64,000 bases of DNA from Candidatus Eiseniibacteriota bacterium (GTDB lineage: Bacteria; Joyebacterota; Joyebacteria; Joyebacterales; Joyebacteraceae), in NCBI GenBank assembly GCA_043815815.1, contig JBDRIO010000029.1, forward strand, positions 13,650 through 77,649. The letters run 5' to 3'. Positions 22,592-58,867 of the stretch are shown here, in pieces (the stretch's first letter is position 1; every line of letters starts with the position of its first letter). Position numbers and translations under genes: made by a program. The notes under the pieces were generated by a model, which saw only the letters and a list, made by a program, of their open reading frames with translations, ran no database searches and had not been told where the DNA came from.

Positions 22592-22593
22592 GG

Positions 22594-23226: not shown

Positions 23227-23269
23227 CGATTCTCCTTCCGGCTGAAACGTGCCGCTCGCGCCGTCCCGC

Positions 23270-24001: not shown

Positions 24002-24079
24002 CCCTGGGTCTCCGCGGAGCGAGTGGATCGTCTCGCGTCCCGGGCCGCGTCTCACGCAAGAGCCGAGCGCCCGATTCGC

Positions 24080-25537: not shown

Positions 25538-25745
25538 TGATGGGCTCCTGAAGGTCGGCTCTTCCGCCCCGTTCCCGGGCGCCGCAGCTGGGTCAGAGAA
25601 TTGTCGCACAGTTCCGGTGGGCAATCCAGAGGCGGCATCCTGCCGCCCGTGGATGACCGGACGCCCGATGTCTGCTAGAATCCCACACGTAACGAGCGCG
25701 CGGCAGGGGAAGCGCGCGCTCCCAACCTCCGCAGGGGAGTCACAC

Positions 25746-26645
25746 GTGTTCCCGCACACACTACACGCCGCCCGCCTCCTAGCAGTTGTGGCGCTCACAC
25801 TCATGCTCTGCCCGCCCGACGCCGCCATGGCCCTTCCGGACTACGCCGTCGAGACAGGGCTCGCCTGCGCCGGCTGTCACGAGGACGGCGCCGACGCCGG
25901 CCCTCTGACAGAGCAGGGCATCGCGTTCCTGGCCGCCGGGCACGTTCTTCCGGAAGAGGTTCAGGGTCCCTCGGAACTCGAACTCTGGGTCCGGGGGCTC
26001 GTCAGGTACCTGCACCTGGTGGCGGGGGTCGTCTGGTTCGGGGCGATCGCCTACATCCACCTCTTCACGAAACCGAAGAGCCTGGTCAAGGGACTCCCGC
26101 GCGCCGAGATGCGCCTCGGCTGGGGCTCCATCATCGTCATGGCGAGCACGGGAACGCTCCTGACGGTCTGGAAGGTCGGTTCGGCCGAGGAGCTGTGGAC
26201 GACGTTCTTCGGCGCCGTGTGGATGGTCAAGGTCGCCACGTTCCTCGCGCTCGTCGTGATCGCGACGGTGGCAACGACGGCGCTGAACCGCAGGATGCGA
26301 AGGGACGCAAGCGAAGAAGGTGGTCCCGGAGCGTGCGGCCACATCAGGTTCGCCTTTGAGGGGACCCTGTACGACGCGACCGACAGCAGGTGGTGGAAGG
26401 AAGGCGTCCACGGCGGGAAGCACCGCGCGGGCACCGACCTCACGGCGGCGATGGCAGACGCGCCCCACGGGCCGGAGGTGCTCGACCGAGTGACCGCCGT
26501 GGGCCGCGTTCCCCACGGGTGCTGCGCCACGGCGCCGAGAGCCGCGCGCGCGTTCATCGTGCTCGCCTACGTGAACCTCGCCCTCATAGCCATCGTTCTC
26601 TTCTGCGTCTCGTTCTGGACGTGGGGGCCGGCGGTCGTGGGATAG
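25746..26645 (+). CDS. Membrane protein with signal peptide, CxxCH haem-c-type motif (CAGCH) and several TM helices
   Basis: VFPHTLHAARLLAVVALTLMLCPPDAAMA signal, then GLACAGCHEDGA, then hydrophobic helices (YLHLVAGVVWFGAIAYIHLF...). No clear family assignment. Confidence 0.4.
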   Translation: MFPHTLHAARLLAVVALTLMLCPPDAAMALPDYAVETGLACAGCHEDGADAGPLTEQGIAFLAAGHVLPEEVQGPSELELWVRGLVRYLHLVAGVVWFGAIAYIHLFTKPKSLVKGLPRAEMRLGWGSIIVMASTGTLLTVWKVGSAEELWTTFFGAVWMVKVATFLALVVIATVATTALNRRMRRDASEEGGPGACGHIRFAFEGTLYDATDSRWWKEGVHGGKHRAGTDLTAAMADAPHGPEVLDRVTAVGRVPHGCCATAPRAARAFIVLAYVNLALIAIVLFCVSFWTWGPAVVG

Positions 26646-42891: not shown

Positions 42892-43159
42892 ACCTCCATA
42901 CCAGCGGGTCAGCGGACCTTGTTGTCCTGTGTTCCGTCCTCCTCTGTTGGTCTTAGACACCCGGCGCGGCCCCGGCGTTTCATCGCTGGAACTCGCGCCC
43001 TTTCCTTGACGATTCGTGACCCATTGCTCTACAATCGTCTTGGGGAGTACCGTGGCGCCGGTGGTTGACACCTGTTCAGGTCTGTTTCCGCCGATGCCGC
43101 GAGAGTCCCCGCTTGCTTGCATGGAGCCGTCCTGCCCGCCATCGCGCCGGAGAACCGAC

Positions 43160-43471
43160 ATGGCCGACAAGGTCCGCAGCACTCCCCGAAGCGCCTCGCC
43201 GAAGTATTGGAGGAAGCCGCTCGACGCCGACAAGATCAAGGTGCCGCACGGCGAACTCCACATACTGGTCGAACGCTGCAAGGGGTGCCAGTTCTGTGTC
43301 GAGTACTGCCCGAGGGACGTCCTCGACATGTCAGAGGACTTCAACCACAAGGGTTATCATTACCCCATCGCCGGGAACGAGAACGGCTGCGTGAACTGCC
43401 GGCTGTGCGAAATGCTCTGCCCGGAGTTCGCCATCTTTTGCCTCGAGGTGGAGGAGGAGGGTAGCGGATGA
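43160..43471 (+). CDS. korD: 2-oxoacid:ferredoxin oxidoreductase delta subunit (2x[4Fe-4S] ferredoxin)
   Basis: CKGCQFCVEYCP and CVNCRLCEMLCP motifs. Stop overlaps the alpha-subunit start (ATGA). Confidence 0.8.
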   Translation: MADKVRSTPRSASPKYWRKPLDADKIKVPHGELHILVERCKGCQFCVEYCPRDVLDMSEDFNHKGYHYPIAGNENGCVNCRLCEMLCPEFAIFCLEVEEEGSG

Positions 43472-44628
43472 GGACGGCTGATCCCAGGGGGGTCTTGACG
43501 GGCGAGCACTACCTCGACGGCGACCACGCGGCGGCGGAAGGCGCGCTCGCCGCCGGCTGTCGCTTCTTCGCAGGCTACCCCATCACACCTTCCACTGAAG
43601 TCGCAGAGAGGATCGCGGCCAGGTTCCCCCGAGTAGGGGGACTTTTCGTGCAGATGGAGGACGAGCTGGCTTCGATGGCGGCGATCCTGGGCGGCGCCTG
43701 GGCCGGCGCCAAGTCGATGACGGTGACGTCGGGTCCGGGGTTCTCGCTCATGATGGAGAACCTGGGGCTGGGGATCATGATGGAGGTCCCGACGGTGATC
43801 GTTAACGTGCAGCGCGGCGGTCCGTCGACCGGTCTTCCGACGCTTCCAGGGCAGGCGGACATGATGCAAGCGCGGTGGGGTTCGCACGGCGACTACGAGA
43901 TCATCGCCGTCTCTCCAAGTTCGCCGCAGGAGGCGTTCGACCACACGATCATGGCGTTCAACTTCGCCGAGAAGTACCGCGTTCCCACGCTCGTAATGAT
44001 GGACGAGTGCGTGGGACACATGACCGAGAAGGTCGTCATCCCCGAGGCGGAGGACATCGAGATCGTCCCCCGCAAGTGGTACGAGGGGAAGAAGGGCGAT
44101 TACCTGCCGTACAAGGCCGACGACGACATGATCCCCTGGATGGTGAAGGCCGGGGACGGGCACAGGTTCCACACGACCGGACTCACGCACGACGAGAGGG
44201 GTTATCCGGTCATGACCGCCGAGTGCCAGGAGGAGTGCGTCGGTCGACTCGTCAACAAGATCCGATCGAGGGTCGACGAGATCGTCGTCCTCGAGGAAGA
44301 GGGGATCGACGGCGCCGACGTGGTCGTCGTGTCGTACGGCATCACGGCCCGGGTCTCGATACCCGCGGTCGAGAAGGCCAGGGCGGACGGCGTCAAGGTG
44401 GGGAGCCTCCGGCTCGTGACGGTGTGGCCGTTCCCGGAGAACCGCATCCGCGAGCTCGCCGGGAAGGTGAAGTCCTTCGTGATCCCGGAGATCAACTACG
44501 GCCAGATCTACTACGAGCTCGAGCGCTGCGCCGGCGGGAAGGCAAGGACCATCCTCGTACCGCACGGCGGCGGGTGGGTGCACGACGAGAAAGACATCTA
44601 CGACGCCATCAAGGAGGGGGCGAAATGA
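43468..44628 (+). CDS. korA: 2-oxoacid:ferredoxin oxidoreductase alpha subunit
   Basis: POR/KOR alpha N-terminal domain: GAxxAGCRFFAGYPITPSTEV, MEDELASMAAILGGAWAG, GPGFSLMMENLG. Confidence 0.9.
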   Translation: MRTADPRGVLTGEHYLDGDHAAAEGALAAGCRFFAGYPITPSTEVAERIAARFPRVGGLFVQMEDELASMAAILGGAWAGAKSMTVTSGPGFSLMMENLGLGIMMEVPTVIVNVQRGGPSTGLPTLPGQADMMQARWGSHGDYEIIAVSPSSPQEAFDHTIMAFNFAEKYRVPTLVMMDECVGHMTEKVVIPEAEDIEIVPRKWYEGKKGDYLPYKADDDMIPWMVKAGDGHRFHTTGLTHDERGYPVMTAECQEECVGRLVNKIRSRVDEIVVLEEEGIDGADVVVVSYGITARVSIPAVEKARADGVKVGSLRLVTVWPFPENRIRELAGKVKSFVIPEINYGQIYYELERCAGGKARTILVPHGGGWVHDEKDIYDAIKEGAK

Positions 44629-45503
44629 AAACCAGGACCCCTGTCGCTCCCGGCCCGCCGCACCCGATGGAAGAACTGCTGCGGATGGACCGCATCCCGC
44701 ACATCTGGTGTCCGACCTGCGGGCTGGGCACGGTCGTCACGGCGTTCGCGGCGGCCTTGGAGAAGCTCGAGATGTCGCTCGATGACGTCGTCGTCGTGTC
44801 CGGCATCGGTTGCACCGGCCGCGTCGCGGGGTACGTCAAGATCGATTCATTCCACACGACCCACGGTCGCGCGATACCCTTCGCGACAGGTATTCATCTC
44901 ACCAACCCGAAGCTCAAGGTCGTCGTCATAAGCGGCGACGGGGACCTCATCTCCATCGGAGGGAACCACTTCATTCACGCGGCGCGCAGGAACGTCGACA
45001 TCACCGTCATATGCGTCAACAACTTCATCTACGCGATGACGGGAGGGCAGGTTGCGCCCACGACGCCGCTGACGGCGAACGCCTCCACGATGCCGTACGG
45101 GAACTTCGAGCGTCCCTTCAACATCCCGTATCTCGCTGAGTCATCGGGCGCGGTCTACGTGGCACGGTGGTCGGCCCTTCACGTGCGGCGACTCACGGCC
45201 GCGATGGCCGAGGCCGTGCAGAAGCCCGGCTTCTCTGTCGTCGAGGTGATCAGTCCCTGCTCCACGCTGTACTCCCGGCGCAACAGACTTGGGACAGGCC
45301 TGGACCTCATGAGGTTCTATCACGACAATTGCGTCATCAAGCACGGCGCCGACACGCGCGGCCTGGACATCGGCTTCCAGGAGGAGATCACCGTCGGCAA
45401 GTTCGTTGATATCGAGCGTCCGACGTACGTGGACGCGATGAACACGTGGTACGGAGAGGTCTTCGGGGACGACTACGAACTCTACGAGGGGTCGGCCAAG
45501 TGA
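44625..45503 (+). CDS. korB: 2-oxoacid:ferredoxin oxidoreductase beta subunit (TPP-binding)
   Basis: WCPTCGLGT, SGIGCTGR, GDGDLISIGGNHFIHAARRNVDITVICVNNFIYAMTGGQ TPP-binding fold. Confidence 0.9.
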   Translation: MKTRTPVAPGPPHPMEELLRMDRIPHIWCPTCGLGTVVTAFAAALEKLEMSLDDVVVVSGIGCTGRVAGYVKIDSFHTTHGRAIPFATGIHLTNPKLKVVVISGDGDLISIGGNHFIHAARRNVDITVICVNNFIYAMTGGQVAPTTPLTANASTMPYGNFERPFNIPYLAESSGAVYVARWSALHVRRLTAAMAEAVQKPGFSVVEVISPCSTLYSRRNRLGTGLDLMRFYHDNCVIKHGADTRGLDIGFQEEITVGKFVDIERPTYVDAMNTWYGEVFGDDYELYEGSAK

Positions 45504-46498
45504 ACGAGATAAGGATCTCCGGATTCGGCGGACAGGGCGTGATCAGATGCGGCTACATCGTGGGCAAGACGGCCGCCATCTTCGACAACAAGCACGCTAC
45601 GTTGACGCAGAGCTTCGGCCCCGAGGCCAGAGGCAGCGCGTGCAGCGCGCAGATCATCGTGGACGACGTTCCGATCCGATACCCGTACCTCACGAAGCCG
45701 GACACGGTGGTCGCGATGTCGCAGGAGGCGTTCGACAAGTTCGGTTCCGACATCACCCCGGGCGGAACGCTGATGATCGACGACGACCTCGTCAAGCCCG
45801 AGAGTCCTCCGAAGGGCTGCAAGGTCTACGCGATCCCGGCAACGAGGATAGCCGAGGGTCTGGGCAACAGGATCGCGGCGAACATCGTGATGCTCGGCTT
45901 CTTCACCGCCGTCACCGACATCATCTCCGTGGAGGCCGCGCGGGACGCCCTCCCGAGTTCGGTGCCTTCCCGCTTCATCGAGCTCAACGAGAAGGCCTTC
46001 GAGGAAGGCTACAGGTTCGGCTCCGAGCTTCTGGGCAAGGAACCCGTGCCGCCGCCGGCCGAGCGCTCCTCGAAGGGCGGCGAGTACAGGGCGTCCAAGG
46101 TCACGACGGCCAAGGCCGGCCGTCGGGCCACGACGCTCGCGCGGGTGAACGTGATGGACGGGGACGCGAGGAAGGGCGCCGCCGGGAAGAGCGCCGCGAA
46201 GTCGGCCGCAAAGGAAGCTGCAGGGGCGGCAATCCCTTCGACCGCGAAGAGGGTCGGGAAGAGGGCGTCCTCGGCGAAGCCCGCGAAGAGGGCCGGGAAG
46301 ACCGCGGCGAAGAAGAAGGCCGGAAAGAGGGCGTCCGCGGCAAAGAAGAAGGCCGGAAAGAGGGCGTCCGCGGCAAAGCCCGGGAAGAAGGCGCCCGCGA
46401 AGAAGGCCGGGAAGACCGCGGCCAGGAAGAAGGCCAAGTCCCCGGCGCGCAAACCTGCCAGGAAGACCGGCAAGAAGAAGTCCCCCGCTAGGAAGTGA
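45500..46498 (+). CDS. korC: 2-oxoacid:ferredoxin oxidoreductase gamma subunit with ~140-aa Lys/Ala-rich histone-H1-like C-terminal tail
   Basis: GTG start overlapping korB stop. Gamma-subunit core [24 protein letters not shown]...[11 protein letters not shown]. Tail ...[12 protein letters not shown]...[62 protein letters not shown]. Confidence 0.8.
46309..46374 (+). repeat. Perfect 33-bp tandem duplication inside the korC tail-coding region
   Basis: gaagaaggccggaaagagggcgtccgcggcaaa x2, encoding [11 protein letters not shown] twice. Confidence 0.8.
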
Positions 46499-46519
46499 GC
46501 GCACGTGTCAGGGGGTACG

Positions 46520-49500
46520 GATGGACAGGGGCGTTCTCGTCATCGGAGGCGGCATAGCAGGCATTCAGGCCGCCCTCGATCTGGCGGACGCGCAGTTCAA
46601 GGTCTATCTCGTCGAACGCGAACCGTCGATCGGCGGGAAGATGGCCCAGCTCGACAAGACGTTCCCGAGCATGGACTGCGCCATCTGAATACTCGGTCCC
46701 AAGATGATGGATGTCGGTCGGCATCCGAACATCGAGCTCTGGACCAACAGCGAGGTTGTTAAGGTCAAGGGCAAGGCCGGGGATTTCAAGGTCAGCGTGC
46801 TCCGCAGAGCGCGGTGCGTCGACGTCGACGAGTGCACCGCGTGCGGGGAGTGCGCCAAGTCGTGCCCCATTGCCGTGCCCAACGAGTTCGACCTGGGATT
46901 GGGCACCCGCAAGGCCATCTACCAGCCGTTCCCTCAGGCGGTGCCGTCCGCCTACATCCGCGACATCGAAACCTGTCTTGGGCACTTCCCGCTGGCCTGC
47001 GGAAGGTGCGCCAAGGCCTGCGAGAAGGGGTGCATCGACTACGACGAGCAGGACGTCGTGGAGGACGTAGCCGTGGGGTCGATCGTCGTGACCACGGGCT
47101 TCGATTTCTACGACCCGGGCGAGGCGAGCGAGTACGGCTACAAGCGCTTCCACAACGTCGTGTCGAGCCTCGAACTCGAGAGGCTCCTCTCCGCGAGCGG
47201 ACCCACGAGGGGCTTCCTCACGCGCTTCACGGATGGCGAGTCCCCCAAGAGGATCGCCTTCATCCAGTGCGTCGGCTCCAGGTGCGTGAAGCGTGACATC
47301 CTCTACTGCAGCCGCATCTGCTGCATGAACGCCGTCAAGGACGCCCTCCTGATCGAGGAGCTCTTCCCGGGCGCAGAGCTGCTCATCTTCAACATCGACG
47401 TGCGCGCCTTCGGGAAGGGCTTCGAGGCCTTCTACCGCCGGTCGCAGGGCAACGCTCAGCTCCGCTATGTGAAGGGCAAGCCCTCCAAGGTGTCCGAGGA
47501 CCCGGACACCGGCCATCTCTTGCTTCACTACGAAGACTCGGTGACCGGCACGATCGAGCACTCCGAGGTCGACATGGTCGTGCTCTCGTCCGCGCTCGTG
47601 CCCTCCGAGGGGACCGCCGGGCTCGCCGAGGTGCTGGGAGTGGGCGTCGCTTCCGACGGGTACATAGAGAGTCGCGACGCCTCGGCCTACCCCCTCGACA
47701 CGACGCGCCCGGGCGTGTACGTGGCAGGTTGTGCGGCCGGGCCCAAGGACATCACCGATTCCGTGGCGGAGGCTTCGGGCGCCGCCGCGCTTGCCGCGTC
47801 GCACGTGCTCAAACACAAGCTCGAAGACACGAAAGTGGAGGTCGAGCAGAGAGACGTCAGCGGTCCTCCGCGCGTTGGGGTCTTCGTCTGTCACTGCGGC
47901 ATCAACATCGGGGGAGTGGTCGACGTCTCCAAGCTGTCCGAGTACGCCGGCACGCTGCCCGACGTGGTCTTCGCCGAGCATCTCCTCTTCGCCTGCGCGG
48001 AGAGCACGCAGAGACAGATACAGGAGCGTGTCGCCGAGCACGACCTGAACAGGGTCGTCGTCGCCGCGTGCACGCCGAGGACGCACGAGCCCGTTTTCAG
48101 GCAGGCGGTGGCCGCGGTCGGCCTGAACCCGTATCTCGTTGAGATGGTCAACATCCGCGACCAGTGCTCGTGGGTCCACGCCAAGGAGCCGGTGGCGGCC
48201 ACCGAGAAGTCGCGCGACCTCGTTCGCATGGCCGTGGCCCGTTCGCGACTCCTCACGCCCCTGTCCGAGAAGGAGCTGGACGTCGGTCACGAGGTGCTCG
48301 TCGTCGGAGGCGGCATCGCGGGCATCGAGACCGCCATAGACCTCTCTCGGAGAGGGTTCTCCGTGCACCTCATCGAGCGCGAGGACGCGCTCGGCGGGCG
48401 GGTGGCAGGCCTGGCGGGAACGTATCCGAGCGGGCGGAGCGGCAGGTCGCTGGTCGACGAGAAGGTCGAGGCTCTGACCGCGACCAAGGTCGACGTCAGG
48501 ACGGGCACCGTCCTCAAGAGCGTCACCGGCTTTGTCGGGAACTTCGAGGCGACGCTGGCGCCGGCGGGCGGCGGCCCGACCGAAACACTGTCCGTCGGCG
48601 CCATCGTCCTCGCCATCGGCGCCGACCTCTACGAGCCCGGACCCGACGACTTCGGCGCCGGTGTCGTGCCGGGCGTCATCCCCAACACCGAGGTCGAAGG
48701 TCTCCTCGAGGGGAAGGGCGCTCCCAAGCTCGGAGGCAAGAAGGTCGAGACGGCCGTCTTCATCCAGTGCGTCGGGTCGCGAGGGGAGAAGGGGAATCCG
48801 GAGTGCTCCCGCTACTGCTGCCAGTCCGCCATCCGTCAGGCGATCGAGCTTCGGAAGCGCGGCGTCGACGTCGTCGTTCTGCACCGTGACGTCCGCGTCT
48901 ACGGCCGCGGGGCCGAGGAGATGTACCGGCGCGCCCGGGGGATGGGCGTGACGTTCCTGGGCTACGACCCGGCCGAGCCGCCCGTCGTCGACCGCGACGG
49001 CGACTCGCTGCGCGTGAGCCTCGCCGTGCCGTCGCGCAACATGACGATCGAGATACCCGCCGACGTCGTGGCCCTCTCGCTGGGCATGGTGCCCAGGAAG
49101 CACGACACGACGGCGATGCAGGAGATGCTCAAGGTCCCGATCGGGAGCGACGGCTTTCTCCTCGAGCGGCACCCCAAGTTCGGCCCCGTCGAGACGAACA
49201 CCGAGGGCGTCTTCCTGTGTGGATGCAGCCAGGCGCCCAAGGACATCGGTGACTCGATATCCCAGGCGTCGGCGGTCGCCTCGAAGATCGGCGCGCTCCT
49301 CGCTCGCGACACGATCACGCTGGAACCGATCGTCTCGGTCGTGAGCGACAGGCTCTGCCGCGCATGCTCGGAGTGCGTGATCGTCTGTGAGTTCAACGCG
49401 ATAGAGATAGGCGAGCTTCCGGACGGGCGGCGCGTGGCGATCGTGAACGAGGCGCTCTGCAAGGGGTGCGGGACGTGCGCCGTGGCATGTCCTAGCGGGG

Positions 49501-49622
49501 CCATCTCGATACGGCACTTCACCGACGAGATGATCGAGACGATGATGGAGGCCTACCTGAGGCCGACCGCTGAGCACGGGTCCGAAGCGTGGCCGGAGAC
49601 GGACGTTGGCGAAACGGGCTGA
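46520..49622 (+). CDS. hdrA: HdrA-like flavoprotein, selenocysteine-containing (in-frame TGA near 46685-46687), double-HdrA fusion with C-terminal 2x[4Fe-4S] ferredoxin
   Basis: N-terminus [22 protein letters not shown]...[10 protein letters not shown]-[TGA][13 protein letters not shown] matches the HdrA DCSMC(I/L)LSPK site, where the second Cys is Sec in known selenoprotein HdrAs. Then a Cys-rich FAD domain, an inserted Fe-S domain ([14 protein letters not shown]...[10 protein letters not shown]), a second FAD domain ([17 protein letters not shown]), then [12 protein letters not shown] / [12 protein letters not shown]. The ORF track only shows the portion after the TGA (46704..49622). Confidence 0.75.
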
Positions 49623-50187
49623 CAGCACGGAGACCGGGCGTGCCTCCGCGAAGGGGACGCGTGCCGGGAGCGCCTCGGGCGGCGCCGGGTCCTCGAACTC
49701 CGGGCGCGGCGCGTTCGAGCCGAGGGTCGTCGCCTTCGCGTGCAACTGGTGCAGCTACCCGGCAGCGGACGCCGCAGGCATCAACAAGATGCAGTATCCG
49801 CCGAACGCGCGGATCATACGCGTCATGTGCGCCGGGCGCATCCACCCCGCGTTCGTTCTGAAGGCTCTCGAGCTCGGCGCAGATGGCGTCCTCGTGTCCG
49901 GCTGCCACTTCGCCGACTGCCACTATCTGTTCGGCGCCAAGCGGGCGGCAGAGCAGTTCGAGAAGACGGCGGAGCTTGTCAGGCTGCTCGGCCTTCCGAA
50001 GGAGAGGGTCCGCTTCGAGCAGATATCCGCCGCCGAGGCGCCGGAGTTCGTGCGCGTGATGCACGAGTTCGTCGAGGACCTGAAGCGACTCGGCCCGAGC
50101 CAGCTCGGCGGGCCCGTTGACGGCGGGAGCCGACCGGGCGACCGCGGGATCGACCTGCCCGGAGTTGTGGGAGAGGAGCGCACGTAG
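49606..50187 (+). CDS. mvhD: MvhD-like protein (methyl-viologen-reducing hydrogenase delta subunit family, [2Fe-2S])
   Basis: [67 protein letters not shown]. Confidence 0.8.
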   Translation: MAKRADSTETGRASAKGTRAGSASGGAGSSNSGRGAFEPRVVAFACNWCSYPAADAAGINKMQYPPNARIIRVMCAGRIHPAFVLKALELGADGVLVSGCHFADCHYLFGAKRAAEQFEKTAELVRLLGLPKERVRFEQISAAEAPEFVRVMHEFVEDLKRLGPSQLGGPVDGGSRPGDRGIDLPGVVGEERT

Positions 50188-50189
50188 CC

Positions 50190-51338
50190 ATGAAGGACCT
50201 GACGGAGGCGATCAGGGTCTCACGCGCGCAGTTCTGCTACGAGTGCGGGAAGTGCACGGGCGTCTGCCCGGTCGCGCGGTACGACAGCGGATTCTCACCC
50301 AGGTCGCTGCTCGTGCGCGCTGTGCGCGGGGAGGAAGGGAAGCTCGTTCAGGACGTGAACGTCTGGTCGTGTCTGACGTGCGGGCTGTGCGACACCCGCT
50401 GCCCGGCGGGCATCGACTACGGGGTCCTGACCAAGGCCGTGAGGGCGGTCGTGCGGCGCGAGGGCGGCGAGGGGACCTGCACTCACGGAGGGGCGGTCCA
50501 GTCGCTCACGAAGATAATGACGAGGCCCAAACTCGAGCAGGACAGGCTCGGCTGGGTCGACGGGACGATGAAGACAAAGGCCAGGGGAGACACGGTCTTC
50601 TTCGTCGGGTGCGCGCCGTACTTCGAGGTCCTCTTCGAAGAGACGGGCGCCAGGTCGCTCGAGACCTCGCGGGCGTCGGTCCGTCTCCTGAACGCGGCCG
50701 GCGTCGTGCCCGCGCTCCTTCCGAACGAGCGCTGCTGCGGCCACGACCTCCTCTGGAACGGCGACGTCGAGAACTTCCGGATGCTCGCGAGGCAGAATCT
50801 CAAGATGCTCGAGGAGGCGGGCGCCAAGCGCGTCGTCGTCGCGTGTCCCGAGGGGTACGCCACACTGAGGAACGATTACCCCGCTCACTTCGGCGAGCTT
50901 CCGTTCGAGGTCGTTCACCTCACGGAGTTCCTCGCGGAGTCAATCGAGGACGGAAGGCTCACGTTCGGAAGTAACGGCGAGGAGACCGTCGTCACCTACC
51001 AGGACCCGTGCAGGCTGGGGCGCCACCTCGGCGTCTACGACGCTCCGAGGCGAGTCATCGAGGCGCTGCCTGGCGTCACGCTGGTCGAGATGGCCCACTC
51101 CCGAGAGAGGGCCATATGCTGCGGGGTGGGGGGATTCCAGAACTGCACGTCGTTCAGCAAGATGATTCAGGCCGCCCGCCTCCGCGAGGCGAAGGCGACG
51201 GGCGCCGACACGCTCGTCACGGCCTGCCCCAAGTGTGAGATACATCTCGGATGCGCGCTCAAGGACCCGGTGCTCGAGGACGAGCTCGGGCTGCGCATCG
51301 TGGACGTAGCGGCCCTGGCCGCGTCGCGTCTCGCGTAG
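50190..51338 (+). CDS. HdrD-like fused HdrC/HdrB protein (2x[4Fe-4S] plus two CCG domains)
   Basis: CYECGKCTGVCP and CLTCGLCDTRCP, then CCG motifs NERCCGHD and AICCGVGG...CPKC. Confidence 0.75.
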   Translation: MKDLTEAIRVSRAQFCYECGKCTGVCPVARYDSGFSPRSLLVRAVRGEEGKLVQDVNVWSCLTCGLCDTRCPAGIDYGVLTKAVRAVVRREGGEGTCTHGGAVQSLTKIMTRPKLEQDRLGWVDGTMKTKARGDTVFFVGCAPYFEVLFEETGARSLETSRASVRLLNAAGVVPALLPNERCCGHDLLWNGDVENFRMLARQNLKMLEEAGAKRVVVACPEGYATLRNDYPAHFGELPFEVVHLTEFLAESIEDGRLTFGSNGEETVVTYQDPCRLGRHLGVYDAPRRVIEALPGVTLVEMAHSRERAICCGVGGFQNCTSFSKMIQAARLREAKATGADTLVTACPKCEIHLGCALKDPVLEDELGLRIVDVAALAASRLA

Positions 51339-51392
51339 CGGAGCGTGTCTCGTGCTGTGAGTCGTACCTCGCGTAGTGAACGGAGGAGCGTG

Positions 51393-53831
51393 ATGGCAAC
51401 GAGGGATGACGGTGACGGGAAGCTCCGGGTAGGCGTGTTCGTCTGCCAGTGCGGTCTGAACATCGCCGGAACCGTGGACTGCGCGGCTGTCGCCGAGTTC
51501 GCTGAAGGCTTGGACGACGTCGCCATCGTGTACAACAACAAGTACACGTGTTCCGAGCCCGGACAACTCGAGCTTCAGAAGGCCATCGAAGAGCACGACC
51601 TGAACCGAGTGGTCGTCGCGTCGTGCTCGCCGCGCATGCACGAGCCCACGTTCAGGGCGGCACTCGAGGGGGCGGGGCTGAATCCCTACCTACTGGAGAT
51701 GGCCAACCTCCGCGAGCACTGCAGCTGGGTGCACATGGGGGAGCCCGACGCAGCAACGGAGAAGGCCAAGGATCTCGTGAAGATGGCCGTCGCCAGAGCC
51801 CGCGCGCTCGCGGCTCAGACGGAGATGGTCGTCCCCATCACGCAGACGGCCCTGGTCGTCGGAGGAGGCGTAGCAGGAATCCAGGCTTCGCTCGACCTCG
51901 CCGACGCCGGTTATCAGGTCTACCTGGTCGAGAAGGAACCCTCCATCGGTGGGATCATGGCTCAGATCGACAAGACCTTTCCCACCATGGACTGCTCCAT
52001 ATGAATTCTCGGCCCCAAGATGGCGGATGTCGGTCGGCATCCGAAGATCGAGCTCCTGGCCTACAGCGAAGTTGAGGACGTCAAAGGGTACGTGGGCAAC
52101 TTCACGGTCACGGTCCGCAAGAAGGCGCGGTACGTGGACGCGAGCGAGTGCACGGCGTGCGGTGACTGTAAGGACGTCTGTCCGGTGACCGCCCCGGACG
52201 AGTTCGAGATAGGCCTGGCCACGAGGAAGGCGATCTACCAGCCGTTCCCGCAGGCCGTTCCGTCGGCGTACGTTCTGAACATCGACGAGTGCCTCGGAAA
52301 CAACCCCATCGCGTGCGGGAAGTGCCTCGAGGTCTGCGACAAGAAGTGCATCGACTACGACGATGAGGACGAGCTGGTTCAGATCGAAGTGGGAACGGTC
52401 ATCGTCTGCGTCGGCATGGACGTCTACGACCCGACGATCATGGACGAGTTCGGGTACACGAGGTTCGAGAACGTCATCACGTCGATGGAGTTCGAGCGCC
52501 TCATCAACTCCGGAGGTCCGACCGAAGGCCACCTGGTCAAGCTCACCGACGGAGAGCAGCCTGGTACGGTGGCGTTCATCCAGTGCGTGGGCTCGAGGGA
52601 CGCGACCCGCGGCAACCCGTACTGCAGCAACTTCTGCTGCATGAACACGGTGAAGGATTGCCTCCTCATCAAGGACCACTACCCCGGCGTCGACATCAAG
52701 GTCTTCTACATCGACATCCGCGCCTTCGGCAAGGGGTTCGAGGACCTCTTCCAGAGGAGCAAGGAGGCGGGGACCCAGTACATCCGCGGCATCCCCGGCG
52801 AGATCGAGGAGGACCCCGAGACGAAGGGTTTGAGGCTTTTCGTCGAGAACACGACCGACGGCGGGGTCGAGCGCCACGACGTCGACATGGTCGTGCTCTC
52901 GGTCGGCGCCATTCCCAGGAAAGACAGCGACGTCATCCAGCGGCTCCTGACGCTCCAGCGGAGCCAGGACGGGTTCTTCCTCGAGGCGCACCCGAAGCTC
53001 AAGCCGGTCGACGCGGCCACGCAAGGCGTCTTCTTCGCCGGCTGTGCCGAGAGCCCGAAGGACATCAAGGACTCCGTGACGCAGGCGAGCGCGGCCGTCG
53101 CGCGCGCCAACCGCCTCATGATGCAGGGGAAGGTGAAGGTCGAGGCCATCACGTCGACCGTGATCCCGGAGCTCTGCAAGTCGTGCGGCATATGCGTCAA
53201 GGTCTGTCCGTATCACGCGATCTCGTGTGACACGAAGGCCAAAGCGGCCGCGGTCGTCGTCGAGGCCGCGTGCGCAGGCTGCGGAGCCTGCAGCGCGGAG
53301 TGTCCGTTCGGCGCCATAACGATGAAGCACTTCACCGACGACCAGATCGAGGCGCAGATCGACGCGATGCTCGACACCGATCCACAGGACAAGGTGCTAG
53401 CGTTCGCGTGCAACTGGTGCTCGTACTCGGGCGGGGACCTCGCGGGGACGAACAGGCTCCAGTACCCGGCGAACGTCCGGCTCATCAGGACGATGTGCTC
53501 CGGGCGCGTCGACAAGAAGTTCGTGCAGAGGGCGTTCGCCAGAGGCGCACCGGTCGTGCTCGTGTCCGGTTGCCACTTCGCGGACTGCCACTACATCAAC
53601 GCCGTGCACTGGACGCAGCGGAGGGTCGAGAAGCTCTGGGACGAGCTGGAGAAGAAGGGCGTCCGTCCCGAGCGGCTGCAGCTCGAGTGGATCTCGGCGG
53701 CCGAGGGTCAGAAGTTCGCGACCGTCATGCGCGCCATGGAGGAACTGCGGCAGACGGTCACGCCCGCTGAGATCGAGAAATCCAGGAAGGCATATGCCAG
53801 TGCCCTCGAGCCCACCGAGGTCACCGCCTAG
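51393..53831 (+). CDS. hdrA: HdrA-like flavoprotein, selenocysteine-containing (in-frame TGA 52002-52004), fused C-terminally to an MvhD domain
   Basis: GGAGGAG RBS; N-terminal Fe-S domain [14 protein letters not shown]...[10 protein letters not shown]; FAD domain ...[10 protein letters not shown]-[TGA][13 protein letters not shown]...; ferredoxin [12 protein letters not shown] / [12 protein letters not shown]; C-terminal Mvh[18 protein letters not shown]...GCHFADCHY. The ORF track splits it into 51345..52004 and 52020..53831, consistent with one TGA-interrupted frame. Confidence 0.8.
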
Positions 53832-53844
53832 AGGAGCGCCGCCC

Positions 53845-53979
53845 ATGGCCGACCAGGCCAGGTTCGTCTGTCTGCGCTGCGGAGCCGAGTTCCTCCTGCC
53901 CTACACGCCCGGAGTGACGGAGGAGCGCACGTGCCCCTCCTGTTCCAGCAACAGCGTCAGGCGCAAGAAGGACAGCTAG
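53845..53979 (+). CDS. FmdB-family zinc-ribbon small protein (44 aa)
   Basis: AGAGGAG RBS. MADQARFVCLRCGAEFLLPYTPGVTEERTCPSCSS (CxxC...CxxC). Confidence 0.45.
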   Translation: MADQARFVCLRCGAEFLLPYTPGVTEERTCPSCSSNSVRRKKDS

Positions 53980-54116
53980 CGCCGCCCCTTTGCGCATGAA
54001 GTGAAGAGCGACGGCCGGGAGCCGGCCGGGGTCATCCCGGCGGGCCCAGGTCCACGCGCGCCGCGAGCAGCCACTGCCGGTCGGGCGGCGCGAACGCACG
54101 ACCCGGGGGAGCGAAG

Positions 54117-57100
54117 ATGCGCAAGCCCTTCGTCATTCTCGAAGACGAGGCCAGGACGCTCGCGAACTACCACGTTCGCTACGTCGACGCTGCCCGCCGG
54201 CACCACGAATCCCTCGTGGAGAAGCTCGAAGCCAAGGGTCTGTACGACAGGGCCCACCTCTGGCAGCTCGCGGCCGAGCCGGCGACGGAGTTCCGCATCG
54301 TCGAGCAGGCGGCCGACTCGTTCGAGGAGAAGCTCGCCTTCCTCGGCTGCTACTACTGCCTGCAGCTTCTCCGAATGAACCTCGACGCCGTCGACTCGCT
54401 GCGGCTGAGCCTCATCTCGCCGGTCGACAGGACCGGCACCGAGCGCGACTTCATGCTCGGAATGGGCGCCGGGTTCCGGGCGCTGTCCGGCGCCTACATG
54501 GAGAGACTACTCTCTCTCTTCATCGCCGACCGCGAGACGCCGGCGTACGTCCTGATCGGCGTCGGCACGCGCGCCGACCAGGACGACATCGACGTCGGCG
54601 TGATCGACGACGGCGGCGAGGGCGGGGAGGCGCTCGATACGGCCATAGCGCGCATGAGCGTTCAGATGCTCAAGTACGCCACGAGCCTCCACTTCCACCT
54701 CTCGGAACACGTGGGCGAGCGCAGCTACAGCGCGACCATCCCCGAGTACAGGAGCACGCTCGACAAAGGGGTAAGGGACTTCGTCATCGTCAATGAGCTG
54801 GTCGGAAGCGCGCCCATCCTGGGTGACACGAGGCTCTTCGCGGAGTTTCAGAACGAGGTCGTGTCCCGCTACTACCACCGGCCCGGCGAGGACCCGAAGT
54901 GGCACGTCGGATACCTGCGCGGACTGCTCGGCGAGATCCAGTCTCTCATCGGACGCCCCCTCGGCCGTGACCACATCAATCCCAAGGACGACGGTCTCCG
55001 CATGACGAAGGGGCTCCTCGCGGTCCTCCGGACGATCCACGGGGTCGAGGAGGTCAACGCCTGGAGGATCATCGACTCGCTTCGCAGGGTCTCGCCGGAG
55101 GACGCCGGGCTCTACGACGACCTCGAGCGGTCGCTGAGCTTCCTCGAGGTCTTCCGCTCCGTCTATCAGCTCCTGGTGGCCCAGGACGAGGAGATCTACC
55201 TCGACGACGCGGTGATGCAGGCGAACCTGGCCCGCGTCGGGGAGGTCATGGGCTACAGGACGGTGGGTCTCATCGGTCCCGAGACGCACCTTCTCGTCGA
55301 GTACTACGAGCACGTGGGGCACGTGCGGAGGATCGTGAGCGAACTGACCGAGCGCTGCACGCAGCACTTGAGGGAGACGACCGTCTTCGCCGACATGGTT
55401 CTCCCCGAGTATCGTGGCAACACGGCGGTCGACTTCGCGGAGCGCAGCGCGTTCTTCCGCGGAACGACGTTCTGGCAGGACCTCCTCGAGCTCCTGGAGC
55501 AGGACGACTGCAGGCTCCTCTGCAGATACCTTGATGACCTGAACGAGCTCCCGCCGGGGGCGCGCGCGAAGGTCGTCGACGCCCTGAGCGCGTGCGCCGA
55601 GTACGCTCCCGGCACCGTGATGACGCTCATCGTCATCCTGGCCCGCAACCCGCACTGCGAGGGAGCGCTCGAGCTCTTCGAGGAGCTGGAAGCGGCATTC
55701 AGGTCGAGGCTGACGAGCGTGCCGTACGCCGCGCTCCCCGCCATCGAGCTCTTCTACCGGCGTCCGAGGCTCGTCAACCGCTATCTCATGAGCATCGGTA
55801 CGGCGGCCACGCTCGAGTTCGCCGACCTGCTCCGCCGGGAGCTGTGGGACCCCGACGTCGCGTTCTGGTGCGGCAAACTCGTTCTGCTCGCTGACCTGCA
55901 CGGGCGCGCGAGCAGGTACTTCAGGCAGTACCTGGATCGTGCGGGGGAGAAATATCCGTCGTGCCTGACGCTCCTGGATGACACGGCGTCGCTGCGGGAC
56001 ATGTCGCGCGGCGTCCTGGCGGGCGTCGAGCGCAAGCCGTCCTCACGAGAGAAGATGGAGAGGCTCGGCGACTTCTACGACCTGGAGTTTCTGCGGATAG
56101 GCTTGAAGACGCTGAACGGAGTTCCGGCGGCGCGCACAGACGGCGAGTTCACCGCCGCCGCCGACACCTACATTCAGGATCTCTTCGACCTGTGCAAGCG
56201 CGAGGTCGACGAGGCGGTCCACTTCCGCGTGGCCACGCACGACCTCCTCGCCGTCTACGCCACGGGAGGGCTTGGACGAGAGCAGGCGTACGACGACGAC
56301 TTCGACCTGCTCGTGCTCGTCAACACGAACCACGAGGACGTGCGCGCCTACGCGGACGCGATCGTGGCCAAGATGAACGCGGAGATCATCAAGCGCGGGA
56401 CTCTGCCCCACTACAGGCTCGCCGACCACATCGGGCACTACGTGGCCACCCTGGACGAGTTGCAGAGCGTGCTCTCGACCGAGCGGTCGGACACCTTCGT
56501 CGACCAGTCGCAGGTTCTAGAGGCGCGCATGATCGTGGGGACGAGCCGGTTCGAGAACGAGTTCCGCAGGAAGATCGTGGGGCGCCATGTCTTCGACGAG
56601 CGGTGTCGGTACGTGAGCAGGATGCGTGAGGAGATCGAGTCGCGTCACCGCGATGCTCGGGCCATGGGGCGCGAGCTCTCCAGCGTCAAGGACGGCGTGG
56701 GGAGTCTGCGCGACATCATCATGCTTCTGCTCATGTACAAGGCGGCCTACAGGCTGCATCGTCCGGTGAACGCGCAGCTTCTCACGGACCTGGCGAGGCT
56801 CGAGCCGACTCATCAGCGCGAGTTCCGCTTCCTGAGCGGGGCGCTCGAGTTCTTCAAGAACCTGCGCAACGCCTATCGCATGTCCGTCGGGGCGGAGGAC
56901 AAGCTCAGGCGCGAGTACTTCCACGTCGTGGCGCAGTCGATGGGGCTCTCGCTGGGTGACGACGAGGAGGCCCGGGAACTCCTGATGCGCGCGTATCGCG
57001 GATGCACGGTCCAGGTTGGCGAGGTCGTCGCGGCGCTGGCCCTCGAGCTCGAGCGGAGCTGCCTGGAACTCTCGGTTGAATCTGCGGACGCGTCGCCTCG

Positions 57101-57410
57101 TCCGTTGAGCGCCATGCCGCCCGGGGTCGGCCCCACGTGGCGGGGAGTGCCGAGGCGCGACGTTCCGTGGTACCCCACGATCGACGAAGGCGCATGCGAG
57201 GGCTGCGGAGCGTGTGAGGACCTCTGTTCATTCGGCGTGCTCGAACGGACGCGCGACGCCTCGACGGTTCGCGTTCGCCGCCGCTACGCGTGCGTCGTCG
57301 GATGCGTTCTCTGTTCCTCGGTCTGCCGGAGCAACGCGATCTCGTTCCCGGGGCTGTCTGTGCTGGAAGGGCTTTCGCAGAGCGGCGGGGCGGACGGCGG
57401 CGGTTCGTAG
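54117..57410 (+). CDS. GlnE-like protein with two nucleotidyltransferase (Pol-beta superfamily) modules and a fused C-terminal 2x[4Fe-4S] ferredoxin domain
   Basis: NTase motifs YVLIGVGTRADQDDIDVGVI and AVYATGGLGREQAYDDDFDLLVLV (compare GlnE GKLGGRELNYSSDLDLVFL). Each is followed by a GlnE-type helical domain. C-terminus CEGCGACEDLC...CVVGCVLCSSVC. 1097 aa. Confidence 0.65.
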   Translation: MRKPFVILEDEARTLANYHVRYVDAARRHHESLVEKLEAKGLYDRAHLWQLAAEPATEFRIVEQAADSFEEKLAFLGCYYCLQLLRMNLDAVDSLRLSLISPVDRTGTERDFMLGMGAGFRALSGAYMERLLSLFIADRETPAYVLIGVGTRADQDDIDVGVIDDGGEGGEALDTAIARMSVQMLKYATSLHFHLSEHVGERSYSATIPEYRSTLDKGVRDFVIVNELVGSAPILGDTRLFAEFQNEVVSRYYHRPGEDPKWHVGYLRGLLGEIQSLIGRPLGRDHINPKDDGLRMTKGLLAVLRTIHGVEEVNAWRIIDSLRRVSPEDAGLYDDLERSLSFLEVFRSVYQLLVAQDEEIYLDDAVMQANLARVGEVMGYRTVGLIGPETHLLVEYYEHVGHVRRIVSELTERCTQHLRETTVFADMVLPEYRGNTAVDFAERSAFFRGTTFWQDLLELLEQDDCRLLCRYLDDLNELPPGARAKVVDALSACAEYAPGTVMTLIVILARNPHCEGALELFEELEAAFRSRLTSVPYAALPAIELFYRRPRLVNRYLMSIGTAATLEFADLLRRELWDPDVAFWCGKLVLLADLHGRASRYFRQYLDRAGEKYPSCLTLLDDTASLRDMSRGVLAGVERKPSSREKMERLGDFYDLEFLRIGLKTLNGVPAARTDGEFTAAADTYIQDLFDLCKREVDEAVHFRVATHDLLAVYATGGLGREQAYDDDFDLLVLVNTNHEDVRAYADAIVAKMNAEIIKRGTLPHYRLADHIGHYVATLDELQSVLSTERSDTFVDQSQVLEARMIVGTSRFENEFRRKIVGRHVFDERCRYVSRMREEIESRHRDARAMGRELSSVKDGVGSLRDIIMLLLMYKAAYRLHRPVNAQLLTDLARLEPTHQREFRFLSGALEFFKNLRNAYRMSVGAEDKLRREYFHVVAQSMGLSLGDDEEARELLMRAYRGCTVQVGEVVAALALELERSCLELSVESADASPRPLSAMPPGVGPTWRGVPRRDVPWYPTIDEGACEGCGACEDLCSFGVLERTRDASTVRVRRRYACVVGCVLCSSVCRSNAISFPGLSVLEGLSQSGGADGGGS

Positions 57411-57476: not shown

Positions 57477-58358
57477 TCAGGACGCGGGAGCACCGAGGCG
57501 GGCGACGATGTCGTCCGCCTTCACCTTGTGCAGGTCGAGTCCCAGCTCCTCACGGGAGAACCCCTGCGCGAGACCGAGCAGTTGGAAGTAGTAGATGATG
57601 GGGATCTCGAACTTCGTCCCCTTCTTCCGCCCGACCGTTATCTGGCCCAGGTCGAACGACGAGAAGCACGTCGGACAGATGAGCCCCATGCAGTCGGCGC
57701 CCGAGTCGGCTATCGACGTGAAGATGCTGTAGACCATCTCGACAGGCATGTCGTCGTCGAGGCATCCCTTCCCGCAACACAGGAGTTCCTCGGGGTGCGA
57801 CACGGGCGTCGCGCCGACGGCCGTCACCAGCTCCTCGAGGATGGACGGGTAGTCCGCGTCATCGACGTGCATGATCTGGGACGGCTTCAGGAGATGGCAT
57901 CCGTAGTGGATGGCCACCTTCACACCATCGAGAGGACGAGTGACCGACTCCCTGACGGCGTCCATCCCGAGTTCGTCGCGGATGAGAACGACCGCGTGTT
58001 CGACCTTCGCGGTCCCCTTGTACGTCTTGCCGACCTTCGCCAGCCTCTTGTTGATCTTCTTGCGGAGGCTCTCGTCCTCGGCGAGCAGGAAGCGCGCCTC
58101 CTTGAGCGTGGCCGTGCATCCGCTGCACAGCGTCACCAGATCGACCCCCGCTTCCTCCGCAAGAGCGAGGTTCCTCGCGGCGATCGTGAGCCATCCCAGC
58201 GCGTCCTTCGCCTTGAAGTAGATGGGGTCGGGACAACACGTGAAGCCGTCGATGTCGACGAGCTCGAACCCGAGCCTGGGCATCGTGAGACGGAAGGCCG
58301 CCTCCATCTGGGGGTACTTGATCGGGATCATGCAGCCGAGGAAAGGCGCGAGCTTCAC
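57477..58358 (-). CDS. hdrB: Heterodisulfide reductase subunit B (two CCG domains)
   Basis: GTG start with GGAGG RBS (VKLAPFLGCMIPIKYP). CCG motifs FTCCPDP...CSGC and LLCCGKGC...CPTC. The ORF track's longer 58928 start overlaps hdrC. Confidence 0.85.
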   Translation of the reverse strand: MKLAPFLGCMIPIKYPQMEAAFRLTMPRLGFELVDIDGFTCCPDPIYFKAKDALGWLTIAARNLALAEEAGVDLVTLCSGCTATLKEARFLLAEDESLRKKINKRLAKVGKTYKGTAKVEHAVVLIRDELGMDAVRESVTRPLDGVKVAIHYGCHLLKPSQIMHVDDADYPSILEELVTAVGATPVSHPEELLCCGKGCLDDDMPVEMVYSIFTSIADSGADCMGLICPTCFSSFDLGQITVGRKKGTKFEIPIIYYFQLLGLAQGFSREELGLDLHKVKADDIVARLGAPAS

Positions 58359-58867
58359 TTGTCGGTCGCCTCCAGGAGTTTTCTCATCTCGTCGACCGGG
58401 ACGTCCTTGAGGGGCTTGAGTCCCAGCCTCTCGCGCGTCTTGTGAACGACGGGCGTCACGACTCCGGCGACGCCCGTCTTCAGGATGTTCTTCGTGAGCA
58501 CGTTGACCGCGTCCGGCGCCACGCCCTTGCGGTCGGCGAGGTTCTTGAGCGCCACGATTACCTCGATAGGGCGAACGTCCTGGGGGCATCGCTCGTAGCA
58601 GCTGTAGCAGTTCGTGCACAGCCAGATGGGCGAATCGGGGGAGAGGAGCGCGTCGCCCCGGCCCAGCAGTACGTCGAGCAGGATGAGTCTGGGGTTGAAA
58701 CGCTCGGAGTAGCGGGCCGCCGGGCACTGCGCGACGCAGGCGCCGCACTGGTAGCAGTAGTTGTGGTGGTCCCCGCCCAGCACCCCGTCGAGTTCGCGTC
58801 GGAGGTCGAAGCTGAGTTCCACGTGGAGGCTCTTGTCGGCCCGGCTCTTGTCGTCTTTGTCCGGCAC
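58355..58867 (-). CDS. hdrC: Heterodisulfide reductase subunit C (2x[4Fe-4S])
   Basis: CYQCGACVAQCP and CTNCYSCYERCP. 4-nt overlap with the hdrB start. Confidence 0.85.
   Translation of the reverse strand: MPDKDDKSRADKSLHVELSFDLRRELDGVLGGDHHNYCYQCGACVAQCPAARYSERFNPRLILLDVLLGRGDALLSPDSPIWLCTNCYSCYERCPQDVRPIEVIVALKNLADRKGVAPDAVNVLTKNILKTGVAGVVTPVVHKTRERLGLKPLKDVPVDEMRKLLEATDK

Follow-up and report, generated by a model that had tools for sequence, protein, structure and literature searches.

A heterodisulfide reductase gene in Candidatus Eisenbacteria appears to be a selenoprotein gene. It lies at positions 51393-53831 on the forward (+) strand of a 64,000-nucleotide stretch of contig JBDRIO010000029.1 (assembly GCA_043815815.1, positions 13,650 to 77,649), which is called the window below. 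The gene, here HdrA-2, encodes a flavoprotein of the HdrA2 type, an HdrA fused to an MvhD domain, and its reading frame is interrupted by one TGA. We regard it as a genuine selenoprotein gene, with a probability of roughly nine in ten that UGA204 is decoded as selenocysteine (Sec), aided by a bacterial Sec insertion sequence (SECIS) hairpin downstream. A second gene in the same cluster, HdrA-1, carries a TGA at the homologous site, and the hairpin that follows both codons is found again behind the same TGA in bacteria of many phyla, with a pattern of codon use and base pairing that the protein does not account for.

One in-frame TGA within an hdrA2-type gene

The open reading frame (ORF) runs from an ATG at 51393 to a TAG at 53829-53831, a length of 812 codons plus stop, and its translation contains a single in-frame TGA, at 52002-52004 (codon 204), beyond which 608 codons remain open. 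Direct reading of the sequence places a Shine-Dalgarno GGAGG at 51382-51386, 6 nt 5' of the ATG, and finds no comparable site ahead of an internal ATG at 52020. With Cys put at codon 204, the product scores 1194.5 bits against the NCBIfam model NF040770 (CoB-CoM heterodisulfide reductase HdrA2; cutoff 1100), residues 12-795 being aligned to the full length of the model (1-777 of 777). The HdrA subunit of the solved structure 5ODC (5odc_A) matches residues 12-660 with an E-value of 1e-243 (phmmer), in one alignment that extends across both sides of the TGA and is ungapped through the site.

Domain searches agree with this picture. Pfam places the start of the flavin adenine dinucleotide (FAD)/Rossmann region at about residue 154 and ferredoxin-type clusters at about residues 246-316 and 589-645; the latter (Fer4/Fer4_7) mark the C-terminal 2x[4Fe-4S] ferredoxin domain of HdrA (53151-53336, residues 587-648). 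The C-terminal part is an MvhD/FlpD domain of the Cys type (53394-53744, residues 668-784; PF02662, E 7e-45), and the MvhD of the same crystal structure (5odc_D) matches residues 665-794 with an E-value of 5e-38. Read from the N-terminus, the layout is a [4Fe-4S] domain, then an FAD/thioredoxin-reductase-like domain that has a ferredoxin domain inserted in it, a second, C-terminal ferredoxin domain and a fused MvhD [2Fe-2S] domain. An earlier reading of the DNA, made from the sequence only, had proposed both a Sec-type HdrA with a TGA at 52002-52004 and a C-terminal MvhD fusion; both are borne out, and the flanking peptide that it quoted is correct.

The site of the TGA is that of a conserved cysteine. 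Residue P217 of HdrA-2 aligns with P210 of 5odc_A, an offset of 7, so that codon 204 (UGA, 52002-52004) corresponds to Cys197 of the solved enzyme. All 119 full-length database homologues have Cys at this position, most of them also continuing MDVGRHP, and 127 tblastn alignments have a stop codon there. An in-frame UGA therefore stands opposite a conserved homologue Cys, with homology on both sides, as is expected of a Sec/Cys pair.

The same site is occupied by a TGA in HdrA-1 (46521-49622, +), a tandem HdrA-HdrA fusion of 1033 aa whose TGA lies at 46686-46688 (codon 56); the sequence-only reading had claimed a TGA shared by the two paralogues at the homologous site, and this holds. Of the 37 genes called with confidence in the window, HdrA-1 and HdrA-2 alone have an internal stop. 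Because TGA is the stop codon of 13 of these 37, the genome uses the standard genetic code. Two metagenome contigs of the Joint Genome Institute (JGI), L001 and L002, contain the same operon with HdrA-2 proteins of 91% amino-acid identity, and both TGAs are kept. Among database proteins the one close homologue, P0002 (91% identity), begins MADVGRHP and is 606 aa long, a fragment whose gene call was truncated at the same TGA; an automatic gene caller has split this orthologue into the 606-aa fragment and an adjacent upstream ORF of 202 aa.

A bacterial-type SECIS hairpin downstream of UGA204

Beginning 20 nt downstream of UGA204, and inside the coding region, the transcript can form a bacterial-type SECIS hairpin (52025-52042, +) in which a 5' arm GGAUGUC (52025-52031) and a 3' arm GGCAUCC (52036-52042) enclose the loop GGUC (52032-52035); the element encodes (A)DVGRHP. 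RNAfold pairs CGGAUGUC (52024-52031) with GGCAUCCG (52036-52043) around the GGUC tetraloop, giving a folding energy of -11.2 kcal/mol for 52024-52043. The conserved stem has 7 bp, and an additional C24-G43 pair makes 8 bp in the HdrA-2 copy. This eighth, outermost C-G pair was considered as part of the conserved element and rejected, as it forms in only 14 of 111 sequences. The 7-bp stem recurs in HdrA-1, at 46709-46726 (-10.3 kcal/mol). The sequence-only reading had drawn the hairpin as CGGATG-tcggtcgg-CATCCG; its existence and its likeness to a SECIS stand, and the 6-bp stem with an 8-nt loop gives way to a stem of 7-8 bp with a GGUC tetraloop, one of the drawn pairs being the one that is not conserved.

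Published criteria for bacterial SECIS (bSECIS) elements call for a loop of 3-9 nt on an upper stem of 4-16 bp, a G at loop position 1 or 2 followed by G or U, a distance of 16-37 nt from the UGA to the apical loop, and a minimum free energy of -7.5 kcal/mol or lower (PMC13188914). The HdrA-2 hairpin agrees with all four: it has a 4-nt loop on a stem of 7-8 bp, the loop sequence is GGUC, 27 nt separate the UGA from the loop (52005-52031), a spacing identical in all 113 bacterial sequences described below, and the energies given above for both paralogues lie under the limit. The minimal SECIS of Escherichia coli fdhF is a 17-nt stem-loop 11 nt from its UGA, with a bulged U17 and with G23/U24 in the apical loop (PMC8659212, which confirms only these two loop positions). 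Both it and the HdrA-2 element are coding-region hairpins just 3' of the UGA, exposing G and U in a small apical loop. By analogy with the E. coli model, SelB carrying Sec-tRNASec would bind the GGUC-loop hairpin and deliver Sec at UGA204. The fdhF loop is likewise GGUC.

RNA-level constraint in Sec-type genes

Folds of 69-101 nt around the TGA have unremarkable shuffle z-scores (+0.6 to -1.5); since a short local hairpin carries the signal, comparative evidence was used in their place. The scan for GAYTGYNNNATHTGAATHYTNGGNCCNAARATG (DC.I-TGA-ILGPKM), a motif that ends before the hairpin begins, covered one genome per GTDB species. At least 120 loci matched; the counts below refer to 113, 112 or 111 bacterial sequences and 12 Asgard sequences among the matches listed. 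These span Desulfobacterota, Chloroflexota, Planctomycetota, KSB1, Zixibacteria, Calditrichota, Acidobacteriota, Gemmatimonadota, Krumholzibacteriota and other phyla, in addition to the 12 Asgard archaea, and many of the retrieved loci carry a full-length Sec-type HdrA2-MvhD gene that has the same TGA and 65-71% identity to HdrA-2.

Across the 113 unique bacterial sequences the 18-nt string GGATG[T/C]CGGTCG[G/A]CATCC is nearly invariant and lies at a fixed distance from the TGA. All seven pairs form in 103 of the 113, at least six in 112, and the loop starts with GGU in 111. Six of the stem pairs are essentially invariant (93-100% paired in 111 distinct rows). The seventh, pair 29-36, varies and covaries: C-G occurs 48 times, U-A 44, U-G 18 and any other combination once, with no C-A at all (Fisher p 2.5e-16, a value that ignores phylogeny). 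None of 500 column shuffles reached the observed covariation score, and pairing falls from 88% to 25-50% when the partner columns are slid by 1 to 3 positions. A change of the 5' base at this pair swaps Val (GUC) for Ala (GCC), and the base opposite is the third position of an Arg codon (CGA/CGG), where the change is synonymous; here the amino-acid sequence follows the RNA, and not the reverse.

Codon choice tells the same story. Among the 112 Sec-type sequences that encode D[VA]GRHP, the Asp codon is GAT in 111, the Gly codon GGT in 111 and the His codon CAT in all 112, and Val/Ala is written solely as GTC or GCC. As a control, metagenomes were scanned for the motif with TGY where the Sec-type genes have TGA, and 114 Cys-type sequences were collected. 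The ten unique Cys-type genes among them that have the same D[VA]GRHP use seven different Val/Ala codons, with GGT in one of ten and a C-ending Val/Ala codon in two of ten (Sec- versus Cys-type, p 8e-12 for GGT and p 5e-11 for the C-ending codon). All seven pairs are present in 2 of the 114 Cys-type sequences and in none of the 12 Asgard Sec-type sequences. Within the operon, GAT, CAT and GGT make up 9%, 10% and 9% of their own codon families, and under this usage the string GAT-GTC-GGT-CGG-CAT has a probability of 8.6e-5 per copy; it is present in both paralogues, between which the flanking synonymous sites have diverged. The constraint thus acts at the RNA level and is specific to TGA-bearing bacterial HdrA genes. 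A comparison of codon-level conservation around the two TGAs, which the sequence-only reading had put forward as the way to tell RNA-structure from protein constraint, cleanly separates the two through the frozen codons, the covariation and the scatter of the Cys-type genes.

The absence of the hairpin from the 12 Asgard sequences fits the placement of archaeal SECIS elements in the 3' untranslated region (UTR) (PMC4989117). These Sec-type HdrA genes without a coding-region hairpin (L012, L029, L031, L076, L080, L087, L089, L097, L100, L109, L118 and L122) have extra in-frame stops aligned to Cys20 (12 of 12), Cys676 (6) and Cys727 (7) of HdrA-2, which fit the multi-Sec HdrA/VhuD genes with 3'-UTR SECIS reported for Lokiarchaeota. 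Two further variants were seen. A Cys-type (TGT) HdrA on metagenome contig Ga0101944_10008857 (L132) keeps GATGCCGGTCGGCATC, that is, the SECIS stem and the GGUC loop, and looks like a SECIS remnant after a recent Sec-to-Cys conversion. In a Phycisphaerales metagenome-assembled genome (L006, 2321-2377, -), the second HdrA copy of a two-copy operon has an alternative hairpin in the same place, GGAGGCG-UGG-CGCCAUCC, encoding MEAWRHP; this is the sole deviating element among the bacterial Sec-type sequences listed.

Alternative explanations

Were the TGA to act as a true stop, the locus would amount to a split gene or a pseudogene: its product would be an N-terminal fragment of 203 aa, perhaps alongside a 603-aa protein re-initiated at the ATG at 52020. 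That ATG is in frame, five codons past the TGA, and gene callers have divided the orthologue in exactly this way, into the 606-aa P0002 and the 202-aa ORF upstream; however, it has no Shine-Dalgarno sequence and encodes the Met of PKM, a conserved residue shared by the Cys-type homologues, and the split would bisect the FAD domain. With a TGA placed exactly on the Cys197 codon in at least 120 species and in both paralogues, and followed by a conserved, covarying hairpin that would then be purposeless, we consider termination at codon 204 very improbable. Hardly any weight can be given, to a similar degree, to the view that the hairpin is a by-product of the DVGRHP peptide and that the UGA is read by other means, such as near-cognate suppression or a reassigned code. 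Cys-type homologues do encode MDVGRHP too, six of the seven pairs involve protein-fixed codon positions 1 or 2, and the larger folds are unremarkable by z-score. Yet Cys-type genes with the identical peptide drop the hairpin codons (GGT in 1/10 against 111/112, C-ending Val/Ala in 2/10 against 112/112) and rarely form all seven pairs (2/114 against 103/113), C-A is absent at the covarying pair, and in both window copies rare A/T-ending codons sit exactly at the hairpin. The 13 of 37 genes that end in TGA speak for a standard code, and the Asgard Sec-HdrA genes, users of 3'-UTR SECIS (PMC4989117), do without the hairpin. The least probable explanation, to which we give almost no credence, is a sequencing or assembly error for TGC or TGT: the window does derive from a metagenome-assembled genome and every full-length database homologue has Cys at the site, but the same TGA is seen 5.3 kb away in the paralogue, in L001 and L002 from two independent JGI metagenomes, and in at least 120 other genomes, each time accompanied by a SECIS hairpin that Cys-type genes lack.

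Several points nonetheless weigh against the decoding of UGA204 as Sec or against parts of that account. Neither selA, selB, selC nor selD occurs within the 64-kb window, Pfam scans of about 45 window ORFs returned no SelA, SelB or SelD, and ARAGORN found no tRNA, hence no tRNA-Sec, in the window, so the Sec-decoding machinery is assumed. No Rfam family was matched at either hairpin (52000-52060 and 46686-46740) at E-values up to 10, and a scan of 46000-54500 at the same threshold gave chance matches only and no SECIS family. Only one stem pair is free to covary, because the other six are locked by codon positions 1 and 2, and the Fisher test overstates independence because the sequences are phylogenetically related. 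Compared with fdhF, the HdrA-2 hairpin has a spacer of 20 nt instead of 11, no bulged U and a perfect 7-bp stem; the longer spacer puts the loop G/U at +32/+33 rather than +23/+24, and in spacer and bulge it departs from a minimal SECIS of the fdhF type. By analogy we take it to work like the fdhF element while belonging to another sub-type. As for the function of the residue, the ligand role considered below comes by homology to an archaeal Cys enzyme, and a 2016 paper that predates the structure classed the Sec position of HdrA as a non-ligand (PMC4989117).

A possible role for Sec204

In the structure of HdrABC-MvhAGD, Cys197 in the thioredoxin-reductase-like domain of one HdrA protomer ligates the N-terminal [4Fe-4S] cluster of its partner, which lies on the low-potential branch towards ferredoxin (PMC9012536). 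By homology to this inter-protomer ligand of the solved HdrA, the selenolate of Sec204 is most likely a ligand that tunes the N-terminal [4Fe-4S] cluster of the partner, rather than a catalytic selenol or selenenylsulfide. HdrA-2 combines the N-terminal domain with the Sec residue, which fits a homodimer like the solved enzyme.

HdrA-1 is organized differently. Its first half has the Sec residue and lacks the N-terminal FeS domain; its second half, from about residue 445, has that domain and is without the DCxxU/C motif. Such complementarity of Cys197 and the N-terminal domain has been described for fused HdrAs of anaerobic methanotrophic archaea (ANME) and Moorella (PMC9012536), which the HdrA-1 halves match, but in the opposite order. 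We tentatively suggest, at slightly under even odds, that Sec may be a selenolate [4Fe-4S] ligand across the HdrA dimer interface and not a catalytic residue; the fused HdrA-1 would in that case be an asymmetric pair within one chain, in which a single cluster has a Se ligand. If this is true, the widespread bacterial Sec-HdrAs would offer a natural system in which to study the tuning of the low-potential branch of flavin-based electron bifurcation by Se-for-S ligand exchange.

HdrA-1 of contig L001 has a second in-frame TGA, at codon 152 (L001 4961-4963), where the window has TGT (46974-46976), the first Cys of a ferredoxin-type cluster motif. A hairpin follows this TGA, with a loop that violates the bSECIS rule, and the TGA is confined to L001, being found neither in the window nor in any other locus listed. 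Either a second Sec or an error would explain it; in the former case, an in-frame TGA at a ferredoxin-motif Cys would extend the idea of Se ligands.

Relation to known systems

Much of what is seen here has precedent. HdrA is a classical prokaryotic selenoprotein family with its canonical Sec near residue 200 (PMC4989117), and work published in 2006 already reported up to seven Sec-HdrA copies in a bacterial genome as well as hdrA-hdrA fusions, Syntrophobacter fumaroxidans being one example (PMC1794560). In a 2026 review, Sec-HdrA with its CxxU motif is represented by the family model NF040770 (PMC13188914). Fusion of HdrA to MvhD is the defining feature of the HdrA2 subclass; members are known from Bacteria and Archaea, and the biochemical archetype is Methanosarcina acetivorans HdrA2B2C2 (PMC5296606). 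The sequence-only reading had called the fusion typical of bacterial HdrA homologues; its occurrence in bacteria stands, and the implied bacterial specificity does not, since HdrA2 is found in both domains and its archetype is archaeal (PMC5296606, NF040770). Sec-HdrA, its multiple copies per genome, and the hdrA-hdrA and HdrA-MvhD fusions are thus already published.

HdrA-2 shares the CxxU motif (DCSIU) and the Sec site with the Sec-HdrA proteins of Deltaproteobacteria/Desulfobacterota, Clostridia and Methanococcales. It differs from them in its host, Candidatus Eisenbacteria, in having a 2-oxoacid:ferredoxin oxidoreductase among its neighbours where the classical operon has the frhD-frhG-frhA hydrogenase genes, and in having MvhD and GlpC-like partners of the Cys type and not of the Sec type. 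The M. acetivorans archetype has the same fusion architecture and length as HdrA-2; it is archaeal, with Cys at the site, separate HdrB2 and HdrC2, and as substrates coenzyme F420 and CoM-S-S-CoB, the disulfide of coenzymes M and B (PMC5296606), whereas HdrA-2 adjoins a fused HdrC/B-like CCG protein and use of CoM-S-S-CoB is not expected in a non-methanogenic bacterium. The likeness to HdrABC-MvhAGD (5ODC) extends end to end over the HdrA part, with all domains present and Sec204 aligned with Cys197; that complex has a separate MvhD and Cys, in contrast to the fused MvhD and Sec of HdrA-2. No MvhAG hydrogenase genes are found within the 64-kb window.

The novelty is modest and lies in the host phylum, in the 2-oxoacid:ferredoxin oxidoreductase genes that head the operon, and in a description of the HdrA SECIS that is explicit and backed by counts. 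No paper linking Candidatus Eisenbacteria to selenoproteins was found in the literature searched, and the group joins the lineages that appear to use Sec in energy metabolism. Knowledge of Sec decoding and of Hdr enzymes is unchanged by HdrA-2. In practical terms, HdrA-2 and HdrA-1 should each be annotated as one selenoprotein gene, public calls of the closest relative having fragmented them, and the 18-nt element GGATGYCGGTCGRCATCC, 20 nt past the TGA, offers a simple and specific marker with which bacterial Sec-type HdrA genes can be found and joined in metagenomes.

The hdr cluster and its neighbourhood

The cluster at 43016-57410 is tight and all of its genes are co-directional. It opens with a 2-oxoacid:ferredoxin oxidoreductase (43016-46498, +; subunits delta, alpha, beta, gamma; Pfam POR_N, PFOR_II, TPP_enzyme_C, POR and Fer4) directly upstream of HdrA-1, with the same subunit order in L001. 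Between HdrA-1 and HdrA-2 lie a free-standing MvhD (FlpD) gene (49606-50187, +; PF02662, E 1e-49) and an HdrC/HdrB-like fusion with 2x[4Fe-4S] and two CCG domains (50190-51338, +; PF02754, E 2.5e-30, and Fer4_8). The fusion has partial matches to the NCBIfam models for TfrB, LdhH, GlpC and HdrC, scores below every NCBIfam HdrB/HdrC cutoff, and is likely the disulfide-reductase module. A 44-aa zinc ribbon (53845-53979, +) lies 3' of HdrA-2, and downstream of the hdr cluster follows a GlnD_UR_UTase-like protein of 1097 aa with a C-terminal 2x[4Fe-4S] ferredoxin domain (54117-57410, +), which may be a redox-sensing regulator.

The combination of an upstream ferredoxin-producing oxidoreductase, two HdrA flavoproteins, MvhD modules and a CCG module suggests a bifurcating or confurcating complex. 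The proposed complex would be cytoplasmic and flavin-based, coupling ferredoxin with a disulfide and a third redox partner, and substrates other than CoM-S-S-CoB and F420 are likely because the host is a non-methanogenic bacterium. For HdrA-2 itself the analysis shows the reading frame, the homology, the identity of the site, the hairpin, the covariation and the frozen codons; that decoding depends on SelB, that Sec is a cluster ligand and which partners the protein has in the cell we infer.

Several observations concern the neighbours of the hdr genes. The GlnD_UR_UTase-like gene stands directly downstream of the hdr cluster in L001 and L002 too. Just beyond it in the window, on the reverse (-) strand, are an hdrC-like gene (Fer4, 58355-58867) and an hdrB-like gene (two CCG, 57477 to about 58350), possible HdrB2C2-type partners of HdrA-2. 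The gamma subunit of the oxidoreductase (46060-46498, +) has a C-terminal extension of about 150 aa that abounds in Lys, Ala and Gly, contains near-perfect repeats and resembles histone H1. At 21701-25828 (-) are genes for an MttB-superfamily methyltransferase, a corrinoid (B12-binding) protein, a homocysteine S-methyltransferase-like protein and a MetH activation-domain-like protein; the set is also near the hdr operon in L001 and L002, which suggests methyl-group metabolism linked to the hdr locus.

Elsewhere the window has features of its host. Its GC content is 66%, with about 0.9 at third codon positions, and OmpA is encoded. The alpha-amylase of the window matches an NCBI protein of a Candidatus Eisenbacteria metagenome-assembled genome with 100% identity. 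Sorting domains of the FlgD_ig/type IX secretion system (T9SS) type are typical of Eisenbacteria and of the Fibrobacteres-Chlorobi-Bacteroidetes (FCB) group, and between 865 and 40554 at least seven secreted hydrolases end in such a C-terminal domain, the proteins with this ending including an esterase, an alpha-amylase (5704-7953, -), an M1 peptidase, an endonuclease I, a GH53 enzyme and a beta-helix protein.

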